Positions 1,142 to 10,612 of a stretch of DNA of 64,000 nt are shown piece by piece. Location: assembly GCA_036560365.1 (NCBI GenBank), contig DATBRI010000085.1, positions 5,300 to 69,299 on the forward strand, in the 5' to 3' direction. The translations under genes were made by a program, and so were the position numbers. Each line of letters begins with the position of its first letter. Within the stretch, counting starts at the first letter, position 1. The notes beneath the pieces were generated by a model, which had not been told where the DNA came from, did no database searches, and saw only the letters and a program-made list of their open reading frames with translations. Source of the stretch: Methylocystis sp. (GTDB lineage: Bacteria > Pseudomonadota > Alphaproteobacteria > Rhizobiales > Beijerinckiaceae).

Positions 1142-2281
1142 ATGGAGTCAGACCAGGAATTAGCTGCAAAGCGGCTAGACGAAAGAGCTCGCCAATCGGA
1201 AGCGCTTTCTTGGCGGGAAAGCGTCGCGCGCCTGCTTCTCTCGGCGATATTAGTCGTTTTCGGCCTGTATGTGCTGGCGAATTACCTGCGTGCATTGGTA
1301 TGGGCGCTCGTGTTGGCGATCGCCCTCTGGCCGCTCTACGATCGCGTTCGCCAAAAGATGACGCCTTGGGCGGCGAAGGAGATTTTGCCTATCGTCTTTA
1401 CAATCCTCGTCGGTTTGGCCGTCTTTCTGCCGGTAGCGGTTCTCGCGGTCGACGCGGTCCGCGAAGTGCGTGACCTAATCGACTTTGCTCGCAGTGCCGA
1501 AAAATCTGGAATTCCTGTGCCGGAGTTTGCCGTCCGGCTCCCTTTCATTGGACAGTGGGTCGCTAACTGGTGGGGCGAACATCTATCGCATGCCGGATGG
1601 GCCAAAGAGATTCTTGCAAAGGCGAACACCTCGTCACTCCGTGAGTTCGGCGCGAACCTGGGCGCAAATATGCTGCATCGCGGAGTCATCTTTGGCATAT
1701 CTCTGCTGACGCTGTTCTTTTTGTTTCGTCATGGCGAGAGCGTATCAGCGCAATGCCGCGCCGCATCCCAAAAGCTGTTTGGCGAACGGGGCGAACGTGT
1801 CGCCCTGCAGATGGTCGCGTCCGTGCATGGAACAGTTGCTGGACTCGTCTTCGTGGCGATCGGCGAAGGCATGCTGATGGGACTTGTCTACTTCTTCACC
1901 CATTTGCCTCATCCGATTTTATTTGCGACGGCGACCGCACTCGCTGCGATGATCCCCTTCGCAGCGGGAATTGCGGTAAGCGTCGCAGCTGTCGTCCTGC
2001 TCGGAGGAGAAGGATTCGCACCGGCCATGATTGTCGCAATAGCCGGCTTCATTGTTATTTTCCTAGCTGATCACTTTGTGAGGCCGAAGCTGATTGGAGG
2101 CGCTACGAAGCTGCCGTTTTTGTGGGTGCTGCTTGGCATTCTCGGCGGCATTGAAAGCTTCCAACTTCTTGGCCTTTTTTTGGGTCCTGCGATAATGGCG
2201 GCATTGATGCTGCTCTGGCGAGAATTAACGGCCTCTGCGGCCAATTGCTCAGCCCGTCTATGCGAGCCTCCGAACTCCTAA
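1142..2281 (+). CDS. AI-2E family (PerM/UPF0118) transporter
   Basis: 379-aa ORF with about 8 hydrophobic helices and the family-typical C-terminal 'FVRPKLIGGATKLPFLWVLLGILGGIESFQLLGLFLGP'. Confidence 0.75.
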   Translation: MESDQELAAKRLDERARQSEALSWRESVARLLLSAILVVFGLYVLANYLRALVWALVLAIALWPLYDRVRQKMTPWAAKEILPIVFTILVGLAVFLPVAVLAVDAVREVRDLIDFARSAEKSGIPVPEFAVRLPFIGQWVANWWGEHLSHAGWAKEILAKANTSSLREFGANLGANMLHRGVIFGISLLTLFFLFRHGESVSAQCRAASQKLFGERGERVALQMVASVHGTVAGLVFVAIGEGMLMGLVYFFTHLPHPILFATATALAAMIPFAAGIAVSVAAVVLLGGEGFAPAMIVAIAGFIVIFLADHFVRPKLIGGATKLPFLWVLLGILGGIESFQLLGLFLGPAIMAALMLLWRELTASAANCSARLCEPPNS

Positions 2282-2418
2282 AATCTTGTCGCCGCAACCG
2301 CTTTGGAAGTCCTGCGATGCATTGCCTGGGATCCGTGCGCGTCCCGCAGTAAAAGCCACATCATAAAACGACCGCAAAGCCGTCTTATGCGACGTCACCA
2401 AAAGGTTCCGAGAACGCC

Positions 2419-2847
2419 ATGGATCCTCGCCTGAAAAAGCTCTTGGCAGCGACTGTTATGTTCGCATACTGGCTTGCAGCGGCCCAAACAATGGGCGAAC
2501 CAACTCAAGCGCGGCCTGTTGAATCGAAGGCTGGCGCGCGCGCCGCGACTGCATACGCGCACTCAAAAAAAGGGGCAAAGCCGGAGTCGCCTCCATGTCC
2601 GCGAGGGACGTGGAAGGACGATCCCGTCTGTTTCGGGGAAGGGGAACTGGATGGTTTGCCTCTACCCTCGGCAAGTTCCATTCAGCGCAGCAATCCGCCA
2701 AAAGAATTGACGGTTAATCCGACAGCCAACCTGAATCCGAGTCCGTCCTCACCCGGTCCTTATCAGGCTGGCGTTGTCTACCAGCCAAATGGTAACGCAG
2801 TCACATCAAGTTATGGCGGTGGAGTGAGCGTTCAGCTTCCCTTTTGA
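2419..2847 (+). CDS. hypothetical secreted protein
   Basis: 142-aa ORF with a signal-like N-terminus 'KKLLAATVMFAYWLAAAQT' and a Pro/Ser/Gly-rich mature part. No family recognised. Confidence 0.4.
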   Translation: MDPRLKKLLAATVMFAYWLAAAQTMGEPTQARPVESKAGARAATAYAHSKKGAKPESPPCPRGTWKDDPVCFGEGELDGLPLPSASSIQRSNPPKELTVNPTANLNPSPSSPGPYQAGVVYQPNGNAVTSSYGGGVSVQLPF

Positions 2848-3093
2848 GCGTCGAAGGCGCCGCAGGGGGTCGCAGATGCACCTTTCTTTATTTTCTCAAT
2901 TATTAACCGCGAACTCGGCCGCATCAGACGGCACGCGTCGCGAAAGGGGATTTCTCAGTCAGAAGTGAGCGAGCAACGGTCTCATCCTTGCTTGGATAAG
3001 ACGTGGACATAGATGGCACGCGGACGCGAGCGTCGGCTTCCGATCGCAGTCGGCGTAGTCCCTTATCGACGACGTGCTGGAGCGGAGTGACGA

Positions 3094-3699
3094 ATGGCTG
3101 AAACGTCGCAAGCGGTCGATCTCCGGAACACAAATGACGGTCGACAGTTTTCAAACATTCTGTGGCTGATCGCGGCTCTCGCTCTGCTATTTTGCATTTT
3201 GGGTATTGTCTTTGATTGGTTAACCGCCTCGACGAGCTATTTCGAGGACGGTGTCGTTTGGATTTATGACAGCGTAATCTATGGATTGGTGGCGATCTCT
3301 TTCGGGAGAGGAGTTTTCTTGGAGCGAACAGCGGCGATCACGCTTTCGCTCGTTCTTGCTGTCGCCGGATGTCATGGATCCTATGACGTTTTCAGCGAAG
3401 TCGTGCAAAGAGGAACGGACGTAGCGCTCACCTCGCCAATCTCTGCCTCAGTATTTGCAGCTGGCACAATCCTGGAGGCTGCCCTCCTGTTTAGATACCG
3501 AAAGTCAGGGGAGCCATTGATGAAAGGGGCTTGGCTTTCCGCCCGAAACTCTGCGGTGATTGGTCTTGCCGGAGCGGCCGCGCCACTCCTCTTTCGCGCG
3601 CCGACCGCCCTTAGCCCACAGGTTTTCGTTGACTGCTTGGATACGATCCTAGCGTTTCAGGCAGCGTTTTTTGTGGCCCGGGAAACCATCGAAATCTAG
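3094..3699 (+). CDS. hypothetical integral membrane protein
   Basis: 201-aa ORF with 5-6 hydrophobic helices. No family recognised. It converges on the NRPS gene with a 22-nt gap. Confidence 0.5.
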   Translation: MAETSQAVDLRNTNDGRQFSNILWLIAALALLFCILGIVFDWLTASTSYFEDGVVWIYDSVIYGLVAISFGRGVFLERTAAITLSLVLAVAGCHGSYDVFSEVVQRGTDVALTSPISASVFAAGTILEAALLFRYRKSGEPLMKGAWLSARNSAVIGLAGAAAPLLFRAPTALSPQVFVDCLDTILAFQAAFFVARETIEI

Positions 3700-3721
3700 C
3701 GAGCTCCCCGCGCGACGGCGA

Positions 3722-6700
3722 TCATCGAGCGGGCTCCGCGGGGGAGCCGATCCACCGCGACGCTGCAGGGATAGCCTCCCCTTTCATGACAACGGTCAGA
3801 GGGCCGAGCTGCGCATAATCGCCGACACGAGTGTCATACAAAATCGTCGAGCCGGGTCCCACCGTAACGCCTTCGCCCACCTCGATCGACCCAATCTTCA
3901 TCAGCCGATCTTCGTAAAGGTGCGTTTGCAACGCGCTGCCCATATTGAGCGCACAGTAATCTCCGACGCTCACGCAATCGAATTCGGTAAGGTCCGTCAT
4001 GTCCATATAGACGCCTTTGCCGAATTTTGCGCCGAACAGACGCAAGACCCACGGTAGGAACGGCGTTCCCCGCAAATGGTCCAGCAATATGTGGCCCGTC
4101 ATTCCCCAATACAAAACCGTGCTGGTTTCGTTGCGAATGGCCCAAAAGGACCACATCGGCCGGACTTGCGGTTTATAGCTTCCCATCGTGGTCCATTTCA
4201 CCGCAGCGGCCACAAACATAACGGCCAAAGGGATCAGCGTTGCGGCAAGAATGAACAGCCCGATGAAGCCGGGATAATCTCTCGCGACGAGCTTTCCGCC
4301 GAAAATTTCGACGGCCCAAGTGCCGAACGTGATATAGAGCATCGACGGCAATGAGATATTAAGCGCCTCGTAAGCCGCCCTGCCAAATTTTCGCATTCGC
4401 GTCGGGTTGAACGTCAAAGCGACGTCAGCCGAATCCGCTCTCTGGCGCGCCGGCAACAGGATCGGCGGCGAGCCGAACCAAGTCTCGCCGCTATGCACTT
4501 CGCGCCCAGTCGGCGGCTTCGATTTTACGCCAATCAAGGCATCCGACGGCAATGATGTTCCGGGCGGAACAATGGCGTCGTTTCCGATAAATACTCTGTC
4601 TCCTACCGCAACCGGCTTGAGGCGCATCCACCCCCTGCGAATATCCTCATCTCCGAGCGCGACTTCGTCGGCGACGAAGCAATTCTCGCCGATGGCGACA
4701 ATATCGTAGCGACCCGCAAGATTGGTTGCGATCTCGGATCCTTTGCCGATCCGGGCGCCCATGAGCTGGTACCAAGCCCGCATGTACAGCGTTGCGTACA
4801 GAGAGGACAGCGTATCGAGCGCAACTTCGGTCGCTAGGGACACGGCCCAGCGGCGCAGATAGAAGAATGACCATACCGAATATCTACCCGCCTTCGCACG
4901 CGGCAAAACCGTCCAGCGGAAAACGGCGACAAGAGCGATGGTCGTCAACACCAGGACGAACGCGGTGGGCCATGCGAGGAGTGGGATCGCCGCGAGATAA
5001 TAATGGTATTCGGATTCAGAAAACTTCATTGTGGCTTCGATTGCGTCGAACGCCCAGAACGCCGGAAATATAGGCAACAGGCCCAGTACGGGTAGAATGA
5101 GAACCAGAATTGCAGAAACGAGATGTACGGCGATTCGCCTCGCCATCGTCGCTGGCGCCGGGGTTTCGAGCGCCTCAGCACTGACGGTTCCGCTGCGCCG
5201 CCCAGGCGAACCGTCCCATATTTCGCAGGGACCAATACGCGATCCGCTAGGCAGGGAAGTCAGGTCTTCCAGGACGGCGCCATCGCCGATCGCGACTCCT
5301 TCCTCGATCACGCAGCCCGTGCCGATATAAGCATCCGCTCCAATCTCGACAGTTCCAATGACGAGTTCATTTCCTTCAACCCGCGCATTGGCGATTTTGA
5401 GTTTCGAGCCAAGGGACGCGCCAGCGCCAATCGACACGAGATCTATTGCGCCGATCTCAATATCGCTAATTTGCGCGTCGTGACCGATCTTCGCACCTAT
5501 TGCGGCGAGATATAGCGGCATCAGCGGCGAATTTTGCAGCAGTCTTGCGTTCGTGAGCGCCAGGAGCCGCTGCGATAGCCACCATCGAAAAAAATACACG
5601 CCCCACAGCCGGTAACGACCCGGCTGGGTGCGCCCGATGACGAGCCACTTGCCGGCAATAGAGATCACTAAGGTCGACAAAGTGACGCAGAGAATGATGC
5701 CAAAAAGGCTTATCGCCTCTTCCGCAAAGCTTGCGTTTTCCGGAGTGATCAAGATGTAGGAAATGAAGATGGCGAGCCATTGAGCCGCCGAAATCGACAG
5801 CAACAACGGCAAAACGAAGAGCTGCGCCAAACCGCAGAAAACGCGCCTTCGAAGGGGCGGCGGATCGAAGGCAAGATCCTTAGCCGGTTCTATCTGACTT
5901 GCATTCAGATGAGCGGCAAGGCTTCGCAGCGTTCTGAACTCATATAAATCCTGCAGCGTGATCGACGCTAGTCTCGGCGTTTCTCGTATGATCGAAACGA
6001 AGTGCGCGGCGAGAAGCGAATGGCCGCCTAGATCCATAAAAAAATCTGCGTCAAGAGGAGCCGTTGCGGTCGAAAGCACCCTTCGAGCGACCTGTTGGAG
6101 TTGAGCTTCGATTTCGTTGCGCGGTTCGCTTTGTACGTCTTCATCGTACGCCGCTCGTTGCGGCAAAACCATGCTTTTGAGACTTTTTTTATCTATCTTG
6201 CCGGACGTCAGCGTCGGCAACGAGGAGACCGCCAGAAACCTCGAAGGCGTCATGTATGAAGGTAGCGCTTTTCTGAGGGCAGCGCGCAAATCGCCTTCGC
6301 GCGGCTGAGAGTCGTCGGCCACAAAGAAGGCCACGAGTTCGTCGATCCCCGCTTCATTGCGCAATACGACCGCCGCCTGCCGAACACCAGATTGAGTCGC
6401 GAGAACGGCTTCGATTTCTCCGAGCTCGACGCGGAAGCCGCGAATCTTGACCTGATCATCGATTCGTCCGCGAAAAACGAAGTTGCCGCTCTCGTTAAGA
6501 ACAACAGCGTCGCCGGAACGATAGAGAACGGGATCCACGCCGTCCGCGTAAAAAGGGTTCGCAATGAATTTTTCCGCCGTAAGGCTATCACGCTTCAGGT
6601 ACCCCTTCGCGATGCCTGGCCCGCCGATGAGAAGTTCGCCTTCTGTGCCGCGGGGAAGCAGTGAAACCGCTTCATCGACGACGTAGCAGGAATAATTTGG

Positions 6701-7831
6701 AATCGGATTCCCGATGGTCACGGCTTCGCCAGGCCTGACCTCGGCCACGGTCGCCACGACGGTTGCCTCCGTCGGGCCATAGCTATTGTAAATGCGCCGG
6801 CCTTCGCGAGACCAGCGCTCGGCGACGCCGGGAGGGCAGGCTTCTCCGCCCAAGATGATCATTCGTAATGTCGCGATGTCTCGAGGCAGCGCATTTAGCA
6901 GCGTCGGGACAGTATCGAGGATGGTTACGCCAGCCCGCTCCAGAACGATTGGCAACCCCTCCATATCGGTAACAATTTTGGAGGTCGCCACGAACAACGC
7001 CGCTCCGGCGAGATAGCTGATCCAAATTTCCTCCATAGAGAGATCAAAGGCGATAGACGCGCCCTGGAAACTCACATCGGAAGGCAAGAAACCGTAAATC
7101 TCATTGGCTGCCCTCAGATAATGGCAGATATTCCGATTCGTAATGATCGTTCCCTTGGGTTTCCCTGTAGAGCCAGACGTGTAGATGATGTAGGCAGGAT
7201 GCTCGGCGGTCGCTCCCAGCTGTCTTGCCGTCGGCAACTGATCAAACGGGTCAGCCGCGAGTTCGGACGCGAAGATTGCTTCAACCGGTAGACCCTCGAA
7301 GGGCCTACCGGAAAATTCGTGAGCGGTGACAAGAAGGCGCGCGCCGGCGTCCTCAAGGCAAACCGCGACTCGGTCAATCGGCGCTTCCGCATCGAAGGGG
7401 AGCCACGCGGCGCCGGTTTTAGCTATCCCAAGCTGAACGATCAGAACGTCGATGCCCCGCGGCATCCAAAGACCAACGACGTCGCCTGGACCGATCCCGC
7501 GCGCAAGCAGCCCTCTTCGGATAGAGTCCGACCGAACATCGAGCTCGCCGTAGGTCAAGGAATGATCCAAGCTCTTCAAGGCAAGGGCGTCCGGACGGCG
7601 TTCCTTGGTTTCGGCGAAGACTTCGCAGAGCAATTCGTCCCGAAGTAGGTGCCTCGCGGCCTTTCCATGCACGACAGAGAGAGGTAACGCTTCCTCGGCC
7701 GAAATTTGATTGTTGGCAGAGACCAAGTGGAGGCACGCATCGTCCATGATCAAGCAAGCCCACTTTGTGCTGGATGGTGTAAGATCATATGCTTTCATTG
7801 CATCCGACCGTGCTTCATTCGCCGGGAGCAT
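3722..7831 (-). CDS. Pls/PosA-type single-module non-ribosomal peptide synthetase (A-T plus three TM-flanked hexapeptide-repeat domains)
   Basis: 1369-aa ORF. Adenylation motifs occur in order: 'YIIYTSGSTGKPKG' (A3), 'FDLSMEE' (A4), 'NSYGPTEATV' (A5), 'GELLIGGPGIAKGYL' (A6), 'YRSGDAV' (A7), 'GRIDDQVKIRGFRVELGEIE' (A8), 'LPSYMTPS' (A9), 'SGKIDKK' (A10). The carrier motif is 'FFMDLGGHSLLAA'. Three blocks of hydrophobic helices follow, each with a left-handed-beta-helix-like repeat ('IGAKIGHDAQISDIEIGA..', 'MGARIGKGSEIATNLAG..', 'FGAKFGKGVYMDMTDL..'). An alternative start at M13 (7795) is possible. Confidence 0.85.
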   Translation of the reverse strand: MLPANEARSDAMKAYDLTPSSTKWACLIMDDACLHLVSANNQISAEEALPLSVVHGKAARHLLRDELLCEVFAETKERRPDALALKSLDHSLTYGELDVRSDSIRRGLLARGIGPGDVVGLWMPRGIDVLIVQLGIAKTGAAWLPFDAEAPIDRVAVCLEDAGARLLVTAHEFSGRPFEGLPVEAIFASELAADPFDQLPTARQLGATAEHPAYIIYTSGSTGKPKGTIITNRNICHYLRAANEIYGFLPSDVSFQGASIAFDLSMEEIWISYLAGAALFVATSKIVTDMEGLPIVLERAGVTILDTVPTLLNALPRDIATLRMIILGGEACPPGVAERWSREGRRIYNSYGPTEATVVATVAEVRPGEAVTIGNPIPNYSCYVVDEAVSLLPRGTEGELLIGGPGIAKGYLKRDSLTAEKFIANPFYADGVDPVLYRSGDAVVLNESGNFVFRGRIDDQVKIRGFRVELGEIEAVLATQSGVRQAAVVLRNEAGIDELVAFFVADDSQPREGDLRAALRKALPSYMTPSRFLAVSSLPTLTSGKIDKKSLKSMVLPQRAAYDEDVQSEPRNEIEAQLQQVARRVLSTATAPLDADFFMDLGGHSLLAAHFVSIIRETPRLASITLQDLYEFRTLRSLAAHLNASQIEPAKDLAFDPPPLRRRVFCGLAQLFVLPLLLSISAAQWLAIFISYILITPENASFAEEAISLFGIILCVTLSTLVISIAGKWLVIGRTQPGRYRLWGVYFFRWWLSQRLLALTNARLLQNSPLMPLYLAAIGAKIGHDAQISDIEIGAIDLVSIGAGASLGSKLKIANARVEGNELVIGTVEIGADAYIGTGCVIEEGVAIGDGAVLEDLTSLPSGSRIGPCEIWDGSPGRRSGTVSAEALETPAPATMARRIAVHLVSAILVLILPVLGLLPIFPAFWAFDAIEATMKFSESEYHYYLAAIPLLAWPTAFVLVLTTIALVAVFRWTVLPRAKAGRYSVWSFFYLRRWAVSLATEVALDTLSSLYATLYMRAWYQLMGARIGKGSEIATNLAGRYDIVAIGENCFVADEVALGDEDIRRGWMRLKPVAVGDRVFIGNDAIVPPGTSLPSDALIGVKSKPPTGREVHSGETWFGSPPILLPARQRADSADVALTFNPTRMRKFGRAAYEALNISLPSMLYITFGTWAVEIFGGKLVARDYPGFIGLFILAATLIPLAVMFVAAAVKWTTMGSYKPQVRPMWSFWAIRNETSTVLYWGMTGHILLDHLRGTPFLPWVLRLFGAKFGKGVYMDMTDLTEFDCVSVGDYCALNMGSALQTHLYEDRLMKIGSIEVGEGVTVGPGSTILYDTRVGDYAQLGPLTVVMKGEAIPAASRWIGSPAEPAR

Positions 7832-7960
7832 GAATGCGCAGCGTCACTGGCCACGGCGAGAGACAATTCTATGCAACAGACCGGGCCCCGATATAGAGCG
7901 ACATATCGATCCAGCGCCGAGGCGTTTTCGCGTCAATTCGGGCGACTGATCGTTGCGCGC

Positions 7961-8320
7961 ATGAAACAAACTTATCTTGTCGCGCTGCTCGCTTGGGCCA
8001 TTATTTTTCATTCAAGCCTAGCGCTTTCCCAGACAGCTCAATCTGCGGCGGACAAACAGGTTAGCGGTTTTCAGTTTGCAGCTCCCGTTCTTTCAAAGTT
8101 CGAAGCGCGGCGTATTCGCCACCGCTGCCGCGATCAAGTTGGGAAGGCCATGAACAAAGAACTGCGCCACTGCTTCGAAATGCACGTTATTGCAAGGCGG
8201 CTTGCGGCCGAGTGCAGGCATAAGGCGCAAACCGCAAACCTCCACGGGCGCGATAAGGATGAAGCAGTGAAGCACTGCCTCGCCGAAAAACTCGGCAGTG
8301 GTACGCCAAAAGAGCCTTAA
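7961..8320 (+). CDS. hypothetical small secreted protein (4 Cys, basic)
   Basis: An internal ATG of ORF 7706..8320 gives the signal peptide 'MKQTYLVALLAWAIIFHSSLALSQT'. The upstream part of the ORF overlaps the NRPS 5' end and looks non-coding. Confidence 0.45.
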   Translation: MKQTYLVALLAWAIIFHSSLALSQTAQSAADKQVSGFQFAAPVLSKFEARRIRHRCRDQVGKAMNKELRHCFEMHVIARRLAAECRHKAQTANLHGRDKDEAVKHCLAEKLGSGTPKEP

Positions 8321-8668
8321 GCGTCTCCAACGCAAGGCGTCCGCCAGAAGCTTCGTTGATTGATCGCTGGAGACATGTAACCGGAGCCATATAATACGAG
8401 CGCGCCATTTTCTCGTTGCTGCAATGCGTCTCTAATGTTTCCAGTGTTCATGTTGCCTCACGGCAAGATCGCGCTTCGGCGGCGCGCGCTCGGTGGTCCG
8501 AAATGGTTCTGGCGAAAGCGTGACTTTGCAGAAACCGTTCAGCAAAGATCCGGAAAAGCAATTGGTCAGTTGATTGATCCTAGTCTCTTTCGCGGTAATA
8601 AAACGCGTGGTAGGCCTCGCCCATAAGCGCATCGACTTGCAATCGAAGCGATCGTTACAGGCGCTCGA

Positions 8669-9175
8669 ATGCGATGTCTTAGAAAATCATTGGCGAGAAC
8701 GTTTGCTTGTCTCGCGTTTGCTCATTTTTCAATGAGCGCCCTGCGCGCGCAACAGCCTAAAACCTCAAAATATGGCGTCTGGGAATCCCAGTGCGCGGCG
8801 ACGTCCAATGGAAAGGCATGCGCCCTGGTCCAAAAGATGATGTCGGAGGAACAGCCGAGTATCGGCATCATGGTGAGCGTCAGGAAATCGCCGGGCACGC
8901 CCAACGGAGTGATCGAATTTTTTGCCCCGCCGGGAACTTTCTTGCTGGAGGGCGTGGGGATCAAAGTCGATAATTATGAACTCGGGAAGTTGCCATTCTT
9001 CAGATGCAATCAGATTGCATGTGCAGCCGAAGGCCAGATCGGCAACGACGTGCTCGACAAGATGCTAAACGGCAAAACCATGTTAGTAACGATCTACCTT
9101 AATCCAGGCGAGGGAGTTCGTCACATCTTCAAGCTAGATGGCTTCGAAGATGGCTATAAAGCGCTGCGAGAGTGA
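8669..9175 (+). CDS. invasion-associated locus B (IalB) family periplasmic protein
   Basis: 168-aa ORF with a signal peptide and the IalB-like pattern 'YGVWESQC....GKACALVQ', 'FFAPPGTFLLEGVGIKVD', 'FFRCNQIACAAE'. Confidence 0.6.
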   Translation: MRCLRKSLARTFACLAFAHFSMSALRAQQPKTSKYGVWESQCAATSNGKACALVQKMMSEEQPSIGIMVSVRKSPGTPNGVIEFFAPPGTFLLEGVGIKVDNYELGKLPFFRCNQIACAAEGQIGNDVLDKMLNGKTMLVTIYLNPGEGVRHIFKLDGFEDGYKALRE

Positions 9176-9340
9176 ACCGAAGGGCCCTGATCGCGAATGG
9201 AGCGGGAGGCTTTTTGCGATTCAAGGTGGCTTTCGCGCCAGCAAATCAACGTAGGCTCAGCCGGTCTCCTCACGCCAGCGCTTTGAATTCCTGCAAGGCT
9301 CCTTAGCTAATCATCGTTGCGCACGCCACGGAGCCGGCCG

Positions 9341-10612
9341 ATGACGCATTTTATGTTCAGCACAGGCATAGAAAACAGCAGTCCGACCATCAACAACGGC
9401 CGCACGCGCATCGACGAGATGGAATCGTGCAGGCACTATAAATGCTGGCGCGAAGATTTCGCTCTGGTTCAGGACGAGCTTCGTATCGGGTGCCTGCGAT
9501 ACGGCCCGCCGCTCTACAAGGCCTTTTTGGGGCCAAATCGCTTCGACTGGGAATTCGCCGACCTGACCTTTGGCGAACTCGACGCGCGGGGAATCATCCC
9601 CATCGCCGATCTATGTCATTTCGGGGTGCCGGACTGGATCGGGAATTTCCAAAATCCAGACTTTCCGGAGCTCTTCGCGCGTTACGCGCGGGCCTTTGCC
9701 GAGCGCTATCCATGGGTGCAGCTCTATACGCCCGTCAATGAAATGTTCGTCTGCGCCACCTTCTCCGCCGCCTATGGCTGGTGGAACGAGCAACTGCAAA
9801 GCGACAGGAGTTTCGTGACGGCGCTGAAGCATATCGTCAAAGCCAACGTCCTGGCCATGCATGCCATCCTTACGGTGCGGCCCGACGCGATTTTCGTGCA
9901 AAGCGAGTCGACGGAATATTTTCATGCCGCGAACCCAAAAGCGATCGGTCCCGCGGAGATTTTGAACGAGCGCCGTTTTCTTTCGCTCGATCTCAATTAT
10001 GGGCACAGAGTGAATTCCGAGATGTATCGATTCCTGGCGGACAACGGACTGACCGACCAGGAATATGATTTCTTCATGAACGAGCACCTTAAGAGCCACT
10101 GCATCATGGGCAACGACTATTACAGCAGGAACGAACACATGGTCGACGCCGAAGGCGAGACCGACTCCTGTGGAGAAATCTTCGGATACAATGAAATCAC
10201 GCGCCAATATTATGACCGTTATGGTCTACCCGTCATGCATACGGAGACAAACACCTGCGAAGGCGCGGACGGTAACCAAGCGGTGTTTTGGCTCCGCAAG
10301 GAATGGGCGAACGTTCTACGCGTGCGCAACAGCGGCGTGCCGATCGTCGGCTTCACCTGGTATTCGCTGACAGATCAGGTGGACTGGGACATCGCGCTGC
10401 GCGAGAAGCGCGGACATGTAAATCCTCTGGGTCTTTACGACCTCGACCGCAACCCGCGTCCTGTCGGGAAGGCATACAAACAGCTCATCGAGGATTGGCG
10501 AGAGGTCTTGCCGGCGCAGAGCGTGTGCCTCACCGTTCCCCTGGCGCGGCGTCCGCGCGCTCATGACTCGAAAACGTCCAATATCAAGGCCGAGCAGTCG
10601 GAACACGCGTGA
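9341..10612 (+). CDS. glycoside hydrolase family 1-like protein
   Basis: The ATG at 9341 is preceded by GGAG. The N-terminus is 'FMFSTGIENSSP'. Acid/base-type 'TPVNEMF' and nucleophile-type 'MHTETNT' glutamates are in GH1-like positions. No signal peptide. Confidence 0.65.
   Translation: MTHFMFSTGIENSSPTINNGRTRIDEMESCRHYKCWREDFALVQDELRIGCLRYGPPLYKAFLGPNRFDWEFADLTFGELDARGIIPIADLCHFGVPDWIGNFQNPDFPELFARYARAFAERYPWVQLYTPVNEMFVCATFSAAYGWWNEQLQSDRSFVTALKHIVKANVLAMHAILTVRPDAIFVQSESTEYFHAANPKAIGPAEILNERRFLSLDLNYGHRVNSEMYRFLADNGLTDQEYDFFMNEHLKSHCIMGNDYYSRNEHMVDAEGETDSCGEIFGYNEITRQYYDRYGLPVMHTETNTCEGADGNQAVFWLRKEWANVLRVRNSGVPIVGFTWYSLTDQVDWDIALREKRGHVNPLGLYDLDRNPRPVGKAYKQLIEDWREVLPAQSVCLTVPLARRPRAHDSKTSNIKAEQSEHA

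Follow-up and report, generated by a model that had tools for sequence, protein, structure and literature searches.

A stand-alone Pls/PosA-family membrane synthetase gene of a Methylocystis-like methanotroph with the DLED-type specificity code

The Pls/PosA enzymes are synthetases of cationic homo-poly(amino acids), and their genes are reported by antiSMASH as the gene type NAPAA. Polycationic polymers with isopeptide linkages find use against microbes and as cell-penetrating agents, with epsilon-polylysine serving as a food preservative and delta-polyornithine as an antifungal, and only about seven such polymers are known. The epsilon-poly-L-lysine synthetase Pls is the founding member of the family, reportedly described by Yamanaka and coworkers in 2008. 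Here we describe a gene of this family in a 64,000-nucleotide stretch of DNA (the window) from Methylocystis sp., contig DATBRI010000085.1, positions 5,300 to 69,299. We consider it highly probable that the gene, on the minus strand near the start of the window, encodes a self-sufficient, membrane-embedded single-module non-ribosomal peptide synthetase (NRPS) of the Pls/PosA family, which makes a short cationic homopolymer.

Two pocket residues, Asp235 and Glu239, are conserved in all characterised members of the family, and both are essential in PosA (PMC10522769). The second position of the specificity code has been proposed as a chain-length gate, with Phe for diaminopropionate (Dap) and diaminobutyrate (Dab), Met for ornithine, and Ala for lysine (Patel & Gulick 2023, PMC10522769). 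In PosA, the M218A substitution raised the efficiency with lysine about 10-fold, while the change of S313 to Ala resulted in a 183-fold loss of efficiency (PMC10522769). The signature D L E D I G T V T/V/I K, found in Rhizobia, Methylobacterium and Archaea, was given there as uncharacterised (PMC10522769), and the codes DLEDIGTVVK and DLEDLGTVTK were marked "#", for an uncharacterised pocket (Patel & Gulick 2023, PMC10522769). An antiSMASH NAPAA cluster with the code DLedLgTVvK was observed in 8/8 complete Bosea genomes (PMC10508160), and NAPAA clusters have also been tallied across methanotroph genomes (PMC11964084).

The gene forms an intact, uninterrupted open reading frame (ORF) at 3722..7831 on the minus strand, which encodes 1369 amino acids (aa) from the first ATG and ends in a stop codon at 3722-3724. 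The sequence-identical database protein (P0001) is called from Met29 and has 1341 aa (3722..7747). Because public gene calls start at Met29 and the orthologue alignments start near query residues 24-28, the true start is probably at 7747, and the gene would then span 3722..7747. The numbering of residues below is that of the 1369-aa frame. The domains are as follows:

6596..7618, minus strand: adenylation (A) domain, N-terminal core, aa 72-412 (PF00501, E 2.5e-76), holding motifs A3 (YTSGSTGKPKG, 217-227), A4 (FDLSMEE, 262-268) and A5 (NSYGPTE, 349-355) and 9/10 specificity residues
6197..6418, minus strand: adenylation C-terminal subdomain, aa 472-545 (PF13193, E 2.9e-10), ending in the A10 lysine K545 (SGKIDKK)
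5906..6103, minus strand: carrier (thiolation, T) domain, aa 577-642 (PF00550, E 2.7e-09)
6014-6034, minus strand: DLGGHSL, aa 600-606, with the phosphopantetheine-attachment serine
3737..5827, minus strand: Pls/PosA-type terminal polymerisation domain, aa 669-1365 (TIGR02353, full model length)

The data showed that the Pfam scan of the protein matched AMP-binding, AMP-binding_C and PP-binding, with Hexapep as the sole other named repeat, and that the Condensation, epimerase and Thioesterase families gave no match even at E<=0.1. The adenylation region also matched TIGR01733 with 385 bits against a cutoff of 317. The core motifs are all in order, as the three motifs listed above are followed by YRSGD (437-441), GRIDDQVKIRGFRVELGEIE (455-474), SGKIDKK (543-549) and DLGGHSL (600-606). 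The protein thus lacks the condensation domain and the thioesterase/R (TE/R) release domain of a canonical modular NRPS, and its resemblance to multimodular NRPSs is limited to the A-T region. When a representative library was searched with the A domain included in the query, the top 150 matches were giant multimodular NRPSs with summed A domains, and P0086 was the lone family member among them.

The C-terminal half of the protein matched the NCBIfam model TIGR02353 (NRPS_term_dom, Pls/PosA family), which is an equivalog-domain model, with 590.3 bits against a curated cutoff of 423.1 (E 5e-177). The match of aa 669-1365 covers model positions 2-695 of 695, and such a sequence match is far beyond chance. 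This part of the protein consists of three mutually homologous units with 25-27% identity, which all share the motif W..GR.PGRY.W after the membrane hairpin, GAK[IF]GKG at the entry to the beta-helix, and a closing W.GSP:

5147..5854, minus strand: repeat unit 1, aa 660-895, with a hairpin at about 660-695 and 702-731 and a left-handed beta-helix at about 791-882; conserved loop NARVEGN at 815-821 and Hexapep match at 828-854
4427..5146, minus strand: repeat unit 2, aa 896-1135, with helices at about 896-935 and 939-975 and a beta-helix at about 1045-1126; invariant loop GDEDIRRGW at 1060-1068, and weak gamma-carbonic-anhydrase/left-handed beta-helix (LbH) matches over the unit
3725..4426, minus strand: repeat unit 3, aa 1136-1369, with helices at about 1145-1182 and 1186-1215 and a beta-helix at about 1287-1361; invariant QTHLYEDR at 1302-1309, which includes His1304

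Strong hydrophobic segments on the Kyte-Doolittle scale were located at 664-690, 707-725, 904-925, 958-976 and 1189-1207. The fifth membrane helix has weak hydropathy, yet it appears as the long helix 1145-1182 in an AlphaFold2 model of aa 650-1369, which was built from an alignment of 45 orthologues. The model is a confident one (mean predicted local distance difference test score, pLDDT, 82; predicted TM-score, pTM, 0.86) and contains, three times over, two long helices, then short helices, and then a left-handed beta-helix. The arrangement is the one that defines the family, with six transmembrane helices in three pairs between three homologous soluble segments (C1-C3). The loops GDEDIRRGW of unit 2 and QTHLYEDR of unit 3, which interrupt the beta-helices, are invariant across 46 sequences and conserved also in PosA, and His1304 could plausibly be a candidate general base. 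Because the number of helices before each soluble unit is even and a Lys/Arg-rich stretch follows each hairpin, all three beta-helices would be located on the cytoplasmic side, together with the carrier domain.

The identity of the protein to PosA is 41% (similarity 58%) over 1336 aligned columns, and the two proteins align collinearly all the way from the A domain through the final beta-helix, with no domain missing; the PosA sequence was taken from Supplementary Table 3 of PMC10522769, where its text recognition is imperfect. The terminal domains have in common the motifs QTHL[YF]EDR[LI]MKIG, GDE[DE]I..GWM.LK and NA[RK]VE. The best single-domain match in the PDB was the PosA A domain 8g95 (375.7 bits over 407 aa), with the Pls A domain 7wew scoring 265 bits. 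Judged from its sequence, the protein is a Pls/PosA member by every test of membership. An earlier note on this DNA had proposed the complete A domain with a DLGGHSL carrier in a 1369-aa ORF, the lack of condensation, epimerisation and thioesterase domains, and three blocks of hydrophobic helices and beta-helix; the Pfam matches and ordered motifs, the empty Pfam result, and the repeat identity together with the AlphaFold2 model agree with each of these in turn. Its assignment of the gene to the Pls/PosA type is likewise upheld by the TIGR02353 score, the architecture, the D235/E239 pair and the end-to-end identity to PosA.

A protein search retrieved thousands of relatives, the best 120 of which have the same length and 58-81% identity. 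Their sources are Methylocystis (sp. MJC1, 81%; sp. Sn-Cys, 79%), Methylosinus, Rhodoblastus, Methylocella and Beijerinckiaceae, and for many of them NCBI already has the name "Pls/PosA family non-ribosomal peptide synthetase". The host is an alphaproteobacterium, as suggested before, and the best named relatives, at 79-81% identity, are Methylocystis spp. A scan of one genome per species gave 68 loci with 50-81% identity, which include Bosea (about 18 species), Methylobacterium, Lichenihabitans, Xanthobacter, Azospirillum, Telmatospirillum and Pseudoroseomonas. Orthologues are thus present in Methylocystis, Methylosinus, Rhodoblastus, Methylocella, Bosea, Methylobacterium, Azospirillum and others. 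The ratio of nonsynonymous to synonymous substitution rates (dN/dS) against the 81%-identical orthologue is about 0.11, which indicates a functional gene that is maintained by purifying selection.

Two unusual copies were also observed. A 53%-identical synthetase copy (L040, DATGZW010000525.1, 2497-5607) is located on a contig of 5.6 kb whose bin is labelled "Patescibacteria group bacterium"; the contig is most likely mis-binned alphaproteobacterial DNA. The other copy (L064, CAVPAB010000001.1, 8001-12010), from a long-read metagenome-assembled genome, has fragmented ORFs and 31% identity in its best segment, and it shares the histidine-phosphatase/aroC context with the 50-60% orthologues; its fragmentation could reflect either a decaying copy or sequencing indels.

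The alignment of the A domain to GrsA-PheA gave the full specificity code DLEDIGSVVK (D263 L264 E267 D306 I326 G328 S350 V358 V359 K545). The GrsA-PheA reference was accepted since all ten residues of its code DAWTIAAICK fall at the published positions 235-517, and since the independent alignment with PosA yields the same ten query residues. In this pairwise alignment the query residues are placed opposite PosA D217 M218 E221 H260 N280 G282 T304 V312 S313. The pocket residues Asp235 and Glu239, which family membership requires, are present as D263 and E267. The reading of D235, L236 and E239 from the A4 motif in the earlier note was therefore right, and its suggestion of a cationic substrate gains weight from the full code, whose closest counterparts are the codes for Lys, Orn and Arg. 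The query code compares with others as follows, the first six being from PMC10522769, Supplementary Table 2:

DAESIGTVVK, Pls, Lys: 7/10 positions shared
DMEHNGTVSK, PosA, Orn: 5/10 shared
DFECLSAVTK, poly-Dab enzyme: 4-5/10 shared, as for the next three enzymes
DFECLSCVSK, poly-D-Dab enzyme
DFEYVGTVTK, poly-Dap enzyme
DGESVSVVNK, poly-beta-Lys enzyme
DAESIGSVVK, predicted-Lys code: 8/10 shared
DMEDVGSVDK, Orn/Lys code: 7/10 shared
DGEDHGTVVK, Lys code: 7/10 shared
D[AV]ED[IVL]GA[VI][TD]K, Arg consensus (PMC12283262): 7/10 shared

The code departs from the strict Pls pocket DAESIG[TS]V[VI]K by Leu at position 2 and Asp at position 4. It also departs from the strict PosA pocket DMEHNG[TS]V[ST]K, the differences including Leu in place of Met, Ser in place of Thr and Val in place of Ser313, so the pocket is a different one, although an ornithine-specific function could still be compatible with it. 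Leu264 at position 2 has a bulk similar to Met and departs from the Ala of the Lys pocket, while Asp306 at position 4 provides a second carboxylate, as in Arg and in some Lys/Orn codes. About 163/174 orthologue sequences carry DLED[ILV]G[STG]VVK, with 114/174 being exactly DLEDIGSVVK, and the remaining sequences are mis-picked ORFs.

A cationic substrate is well supported by the sequence, because the code is nearest to Lys, Orn and Arg codes (7-8/10 positions), and a cationic side chain is expected because the acidic E267 and D306, together with S350, are placed at the distal end of the pocket. The lack of conserved partner genes points to a substrate from primary metabolism (Lys, Orn or Arg) rather than to Dab, Dap or beta-Lys. 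L-Ornithine is our tentative first choice of monomer, held at less than even confidence, with L-lysine, also possible, close behind; this leaning is explained by the bulky Leu264 at the gate and by the absence of Dab, Dap or beta-Lys precursor genes in the 68 loci. Arg or another cationic residue appears rather unlikely, and Dab or Dap improbable. This ranking of monomers is a matter of judgement and not of computation, and the leaning to ornithine is a guess.

By analogy with Pls and PosA, the gene product is predicted to carry out template-independent synthesis of an isopeptide homopolymer. The cytoplasmic A domain would adenylate one basic amino acid, as we infer from these two enzymes, and the carrier domain would take up the amino acid as a thioester on its phosphopantetheine arm. 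The terminal domain, seen as one pseudo-threefold beta-helix unit seated on six membrane helices, would then transfer one aminoacyl group after another, with the side-chain amine of either a free monomer or the growing chain as the acceptor. The product would be a short isopeptide-linked polycationic homopolymer, made template-free and without a condensation or thioesterase domain.

The surroundings of the gene in the window are as follows:

1142-2281, plus strand: transporter of the AI-2E family (PF01594, E 4.6e-32), located downstream, two genes from the synthetase
2419-2847, plus strand: small protein with a signal-peptide-like N-terminus and no family match
3094-3699, plus strand: 201-aa polytopic membrane protein, convergent with the synthetase, without a Pfam or NCBIfam match
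~7961-8320, plus strand: small protein with a signal-peptide-like N-terminus and no family match, divergent from the synthetase
8669-9175, plus strand: protein of the IalB family (invasion-associated locus B; PF06776, E 2e-22), upstream
9317-10612, plus strand: weak glycoside-hydrolase-family-1-like ORF (E 2.7e-13), upstream

The gene for the 201-aa membrane protein ends 22 nucleotides (nt) from the synthetase stop codon and adjoins the synthetase in only 3 very close loci, while the longest ORF of the divergent small protein (7706-8320) overlaps the synthetase 5' end. The window neighbours were seen again in only 2-3 very close Methylocystis loci. A different setting, behind a histidine-phosphatase-family gene (His_Phos_1) and fabI and ahead of aroC, is that of the synthetase in 21-25 other loci, and the neighbour families that recur there are all housekeeping: enoyl-ACP reductase, the histidine-phosphatase-family protein and chorismate synthase. 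Other recurrent neighbouring ORFs were rejected as partners because they are antisense artefacts of housekeeping genes. Across the 68 loci there was no conserved exporter, hydrolase, precursor or resistance gene beside the synthetase, and at the window locus no peptidase gene adjoins it. The AI-2E transporter is probably unrelated to the synthetase, as no counterpart was present in the 68 related loci. The earlier description of the gene as isolated is supported by this lack of conserved partners, but the AI-2E transporter two genes away contradicts its statement that there is no exporter. Its "orphan" label overstates the matter, since standing alone is the norm of the family and PosA is also a single-gene operon (PMC10522769). 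The possibility raised in the same note that the gene could be a widespread, already characterised orthologue turned out to be half true: the gene is widespread, named at NCBI and typed as NAPAA by antiSMASH, but the part about biochemical characterisation did not hold.

The region 2000-10500, which holds the synthetase and several small ORFs without family matches, and in which the IalB-family protein and the glycoside-hydrolase-like ORF also lie, has the lowest sustained GC content of the window (0.546-0.573 versus about 0.60-0.65 elsewhere). Since the locus in most other genera runs from histidine-phosphatase/fabI to aroC, the synthetase appears to have been relocated or re-acquired in the Methylocystis-like lineage, and the low GC is consistent with relocation. 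No sigma-70 promoter or terminator around the gene was convincing above shuffles, no convincing ribosome-binding site was found at the gene, and no upstream regulatory motif was common across genera among 61 loci. A block of about 25 nt, CCTAACGCAATCTACATCTCTC, 20-77 nt upstream of the start, is present in Bosea loci only (L018, L019, L020, L038, L041, L045, L046, L049), where it may act as a promoter or operator specific to that lineage. The tRNA and Rfam scans of the whole window gave no matches, hence no lead to a mobile element or riboswitch.

Several observations weigh against the proposed synthesis of a cationic homopolymer or against its details. The PDB sequence search with the terminal domain gave only weak beta-helix matches, to gamma-carbonic-anhydrase-like proteins and hexapeptide acyltransferases (E>=5e-5), Foldseek against the PDB found only proteins with a single beta-helix (best TM-score relative to the query 0.18), and neither search located a solved structure of a terminal domain of this family. 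In the literature searched, up to 2026, there was no assay of the DLED-coded branch and no product for any gene carrying this code, no assayed family enzyme has Leu at position 2, and no phosphopantetheinyl transferase was seen in the window. Ornithine as the substrate is not secure, because only 5/10 code positions match PosA and PosA S313 is replaced by Val.

The gene could alternatively be a functional Pls orthologue which makes the known epsilon-poly-L-lysine, although we regard this as unlikely. The pocket differs from the predicted-Lys code DAESIGSVVK at two positions and from that of Pls at three, the Lys code DGEDHGTVVK likewise has Asp at position 278, and lysine as a primary metabolite fits the absence of precursor genes nearby. 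On the other hand, all Lys enzymes have Ala at position 2, where the query has Leu and which in PosA sets a steric limit on chain length (PMC10522769), the authors of the survey did not score the DLED code as Lys (PMC10522769), and the whole protein is nearer to PosA than to Pls. Rather doubtful as well is a genuinely new pocket, with which the DLED clade would make an undescribed homopolymer, e.g., from arginine or another cationic residue. The arrangement of E239 and D278 with Ile299/Gly301 is of the Arg type, in keeping with the match to the Arg consensus, the published survey gives the code as uncharacterised (PMC10522769), and a Bdellovibrionales family member with an unusual code preferred L-Arg in vitro. 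However, polymerisation through the guanidino side chain is chemically unfavourable, as also argued in bioRxiv 10.64898/2026.04.09.717421, the Arg codes have Ala or Val rather than Leu at position 2 and Ala at 322, and no conserved tailoring or precursor genes are located nearby. It is similarly doubtful that an undescribed polycationic homopolymer of the DLED branch has a physiological rather than an antibiotic role. This suggestion, to be held with the same reserve, draws on a vertically inherited single-copy gene in a housekeeping locus of Hyphomicrobiales and Rhodospirillales with no conserved resistance or degradation gene; if it were true, the polymer could serve, e.g., to set the charge of the envelope or biofilm, to handle metals or to protect against stress.

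A non-polymerase, which would move a single basic aminoacyl group to a membrane or envelope acceptor (lipid, glycan or peptidoglycan) by a Dlt/MprF-like logic, seems very unlikely. Such a role would suit a terminal domain built on the hexapeptide acyltransferase fold and a gene that is single-copy in the housekeeping locus (His_Phos_1/fabI upstream, aroC downstream) of more than 20 genomes, and the purifying selection with no self-resistance or degrading enzyme nearby is more like physiology than antibiosis. Against it, PosA, which is 41% identical and shares the motifs, needs nothing but amino acid and ATP to form 7-12-mers in vitro (PMC10522769), the equivalog-domain family hidden Markov model scores well over its cutoff, and no sequence feature is specific to another acceptor. 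The chance that the gene is an inactive relic, or its architecture an accident of mis-assembly, is close to negligible: it does lie in the lowest-GC stretch (0.55-0.57 versus 0.60-0.65), outside the syntenic position of other genera and with neither promoter nor ribosome-binding site convincing, but the 1369-codon frame is uninterrupted with all catalytic motifs intact, dN/dS is about 0.11, and the architecture recurs in 60+ independent genomes. A pseudogene was rejected on the grounds of purifying selection and intact motifs. Among these readings, the short cationic homopolymer made by a self-sufficient Pls/PosA-type synthetase is the one that we prefer.

The family and the branch are already known and are annotated routinely by the NCBI model and antiSMASH. 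The finding is unsurprising to specialists. What is new here is a further member of the DLED branch, from a Methylocystis-like methanotroph; because the branch is published, the annotation routine and all the sequence-level features of the family present, it counts as a new family member only. The branch is alphaproteobacterial, large and strongly conserved; it includes methanotrophs, methylotrophs, Bosea and Azospirillum, and its pocket differs from those of all assayed enzymes at the residue thought to set monomer length. The product of any member of the branch would either be a further polymer for the list or broaden the specificity rule to cover Leu at position 2 with Asp at position 4, and it would also label thousands of entries that are now just "Pls/PosA family" or "NAPAA".

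Pls of Streptomyces albulus (7wew) has the same domain logic as the window protein, with six transmembrane helices between three tandem domains. The distal half of its pocket (I299 G301 [T/S]322 V330 V331 K517) is essentially identical in the query, while its Ala at position 2 and Ser at position 4 differ from the Leu and Asp of the query, and its A domain is more distant than that of PosA. In S. albulus, pls is followed by the gene for an epsilon-poly-L-lysine-degrading enzyme.

PosA, the delta-poly-L-ornithine synthetase of Acinetobacter baumannii (PMC10522769; structures 8g95-8g98), shares the A-T-terminal-domain architecture, and as a single-gene operon with no co-transcribed partners it stands alone like the window gene (PMC10522769). 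The published model of PosA has six bent membrane helices under three beta-helices in approximately threefold packing (PMC10522769), which the AlphaFold2 model of the query matches. In the pocket, the Met gate of PosA is replaced by Leu, His260 by Asp, which is a second acidic residue, Asn280 by Ile, and the amine-binding Ser313 by Val, while Thr304 is conservatively replaced by Ser.

The actinomycete poly-Dap, poly-Dab and poly-beta-Lys synthetases are of the same family and architecture as the query and conserve D235/E239, but they have Phe or Gly at position 2, unlike the Leu of the query. Their substrates are non-proteinogenic and need dedicated precursor enzymes, none of which is conserved beside the query gene. 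Each soluble segment of the query has a left-handed beta-helix like that of the trimeric hexapeptide-repeat acyltransferases and gamma-carbonic-anhydrase-like proteins (maltose O-acetyltransferase 1ocx/3hjj), and the three beta-helices about a pseudo-threefold axis mimic the acyltransferase homotrimer. In contrast to these proteins, the query has its three beta-helices in one chain, interleaved with membrane hairpins, the identity is 13-20%, and the proposed acyl donor is a carrier-protein thioester rather than an acyl-CoA.

The closest likeness is to the "DLEDIGTV[TVI]K" branch of Rhizobium hainanense and Methylobacterium sp. (PMC10522769, Supplementary Table 2), from which the query code differs by Ser for Thr at position 7. 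By its sequence, the window gene belongs to this DLED branch of Rhizobium/Methylobacterium and of the Bosea NAPAA clusters (PMC10522769, PMC10508160); it differs from the rest of the branch in its genomic context, and otherwise in nothing of substance.

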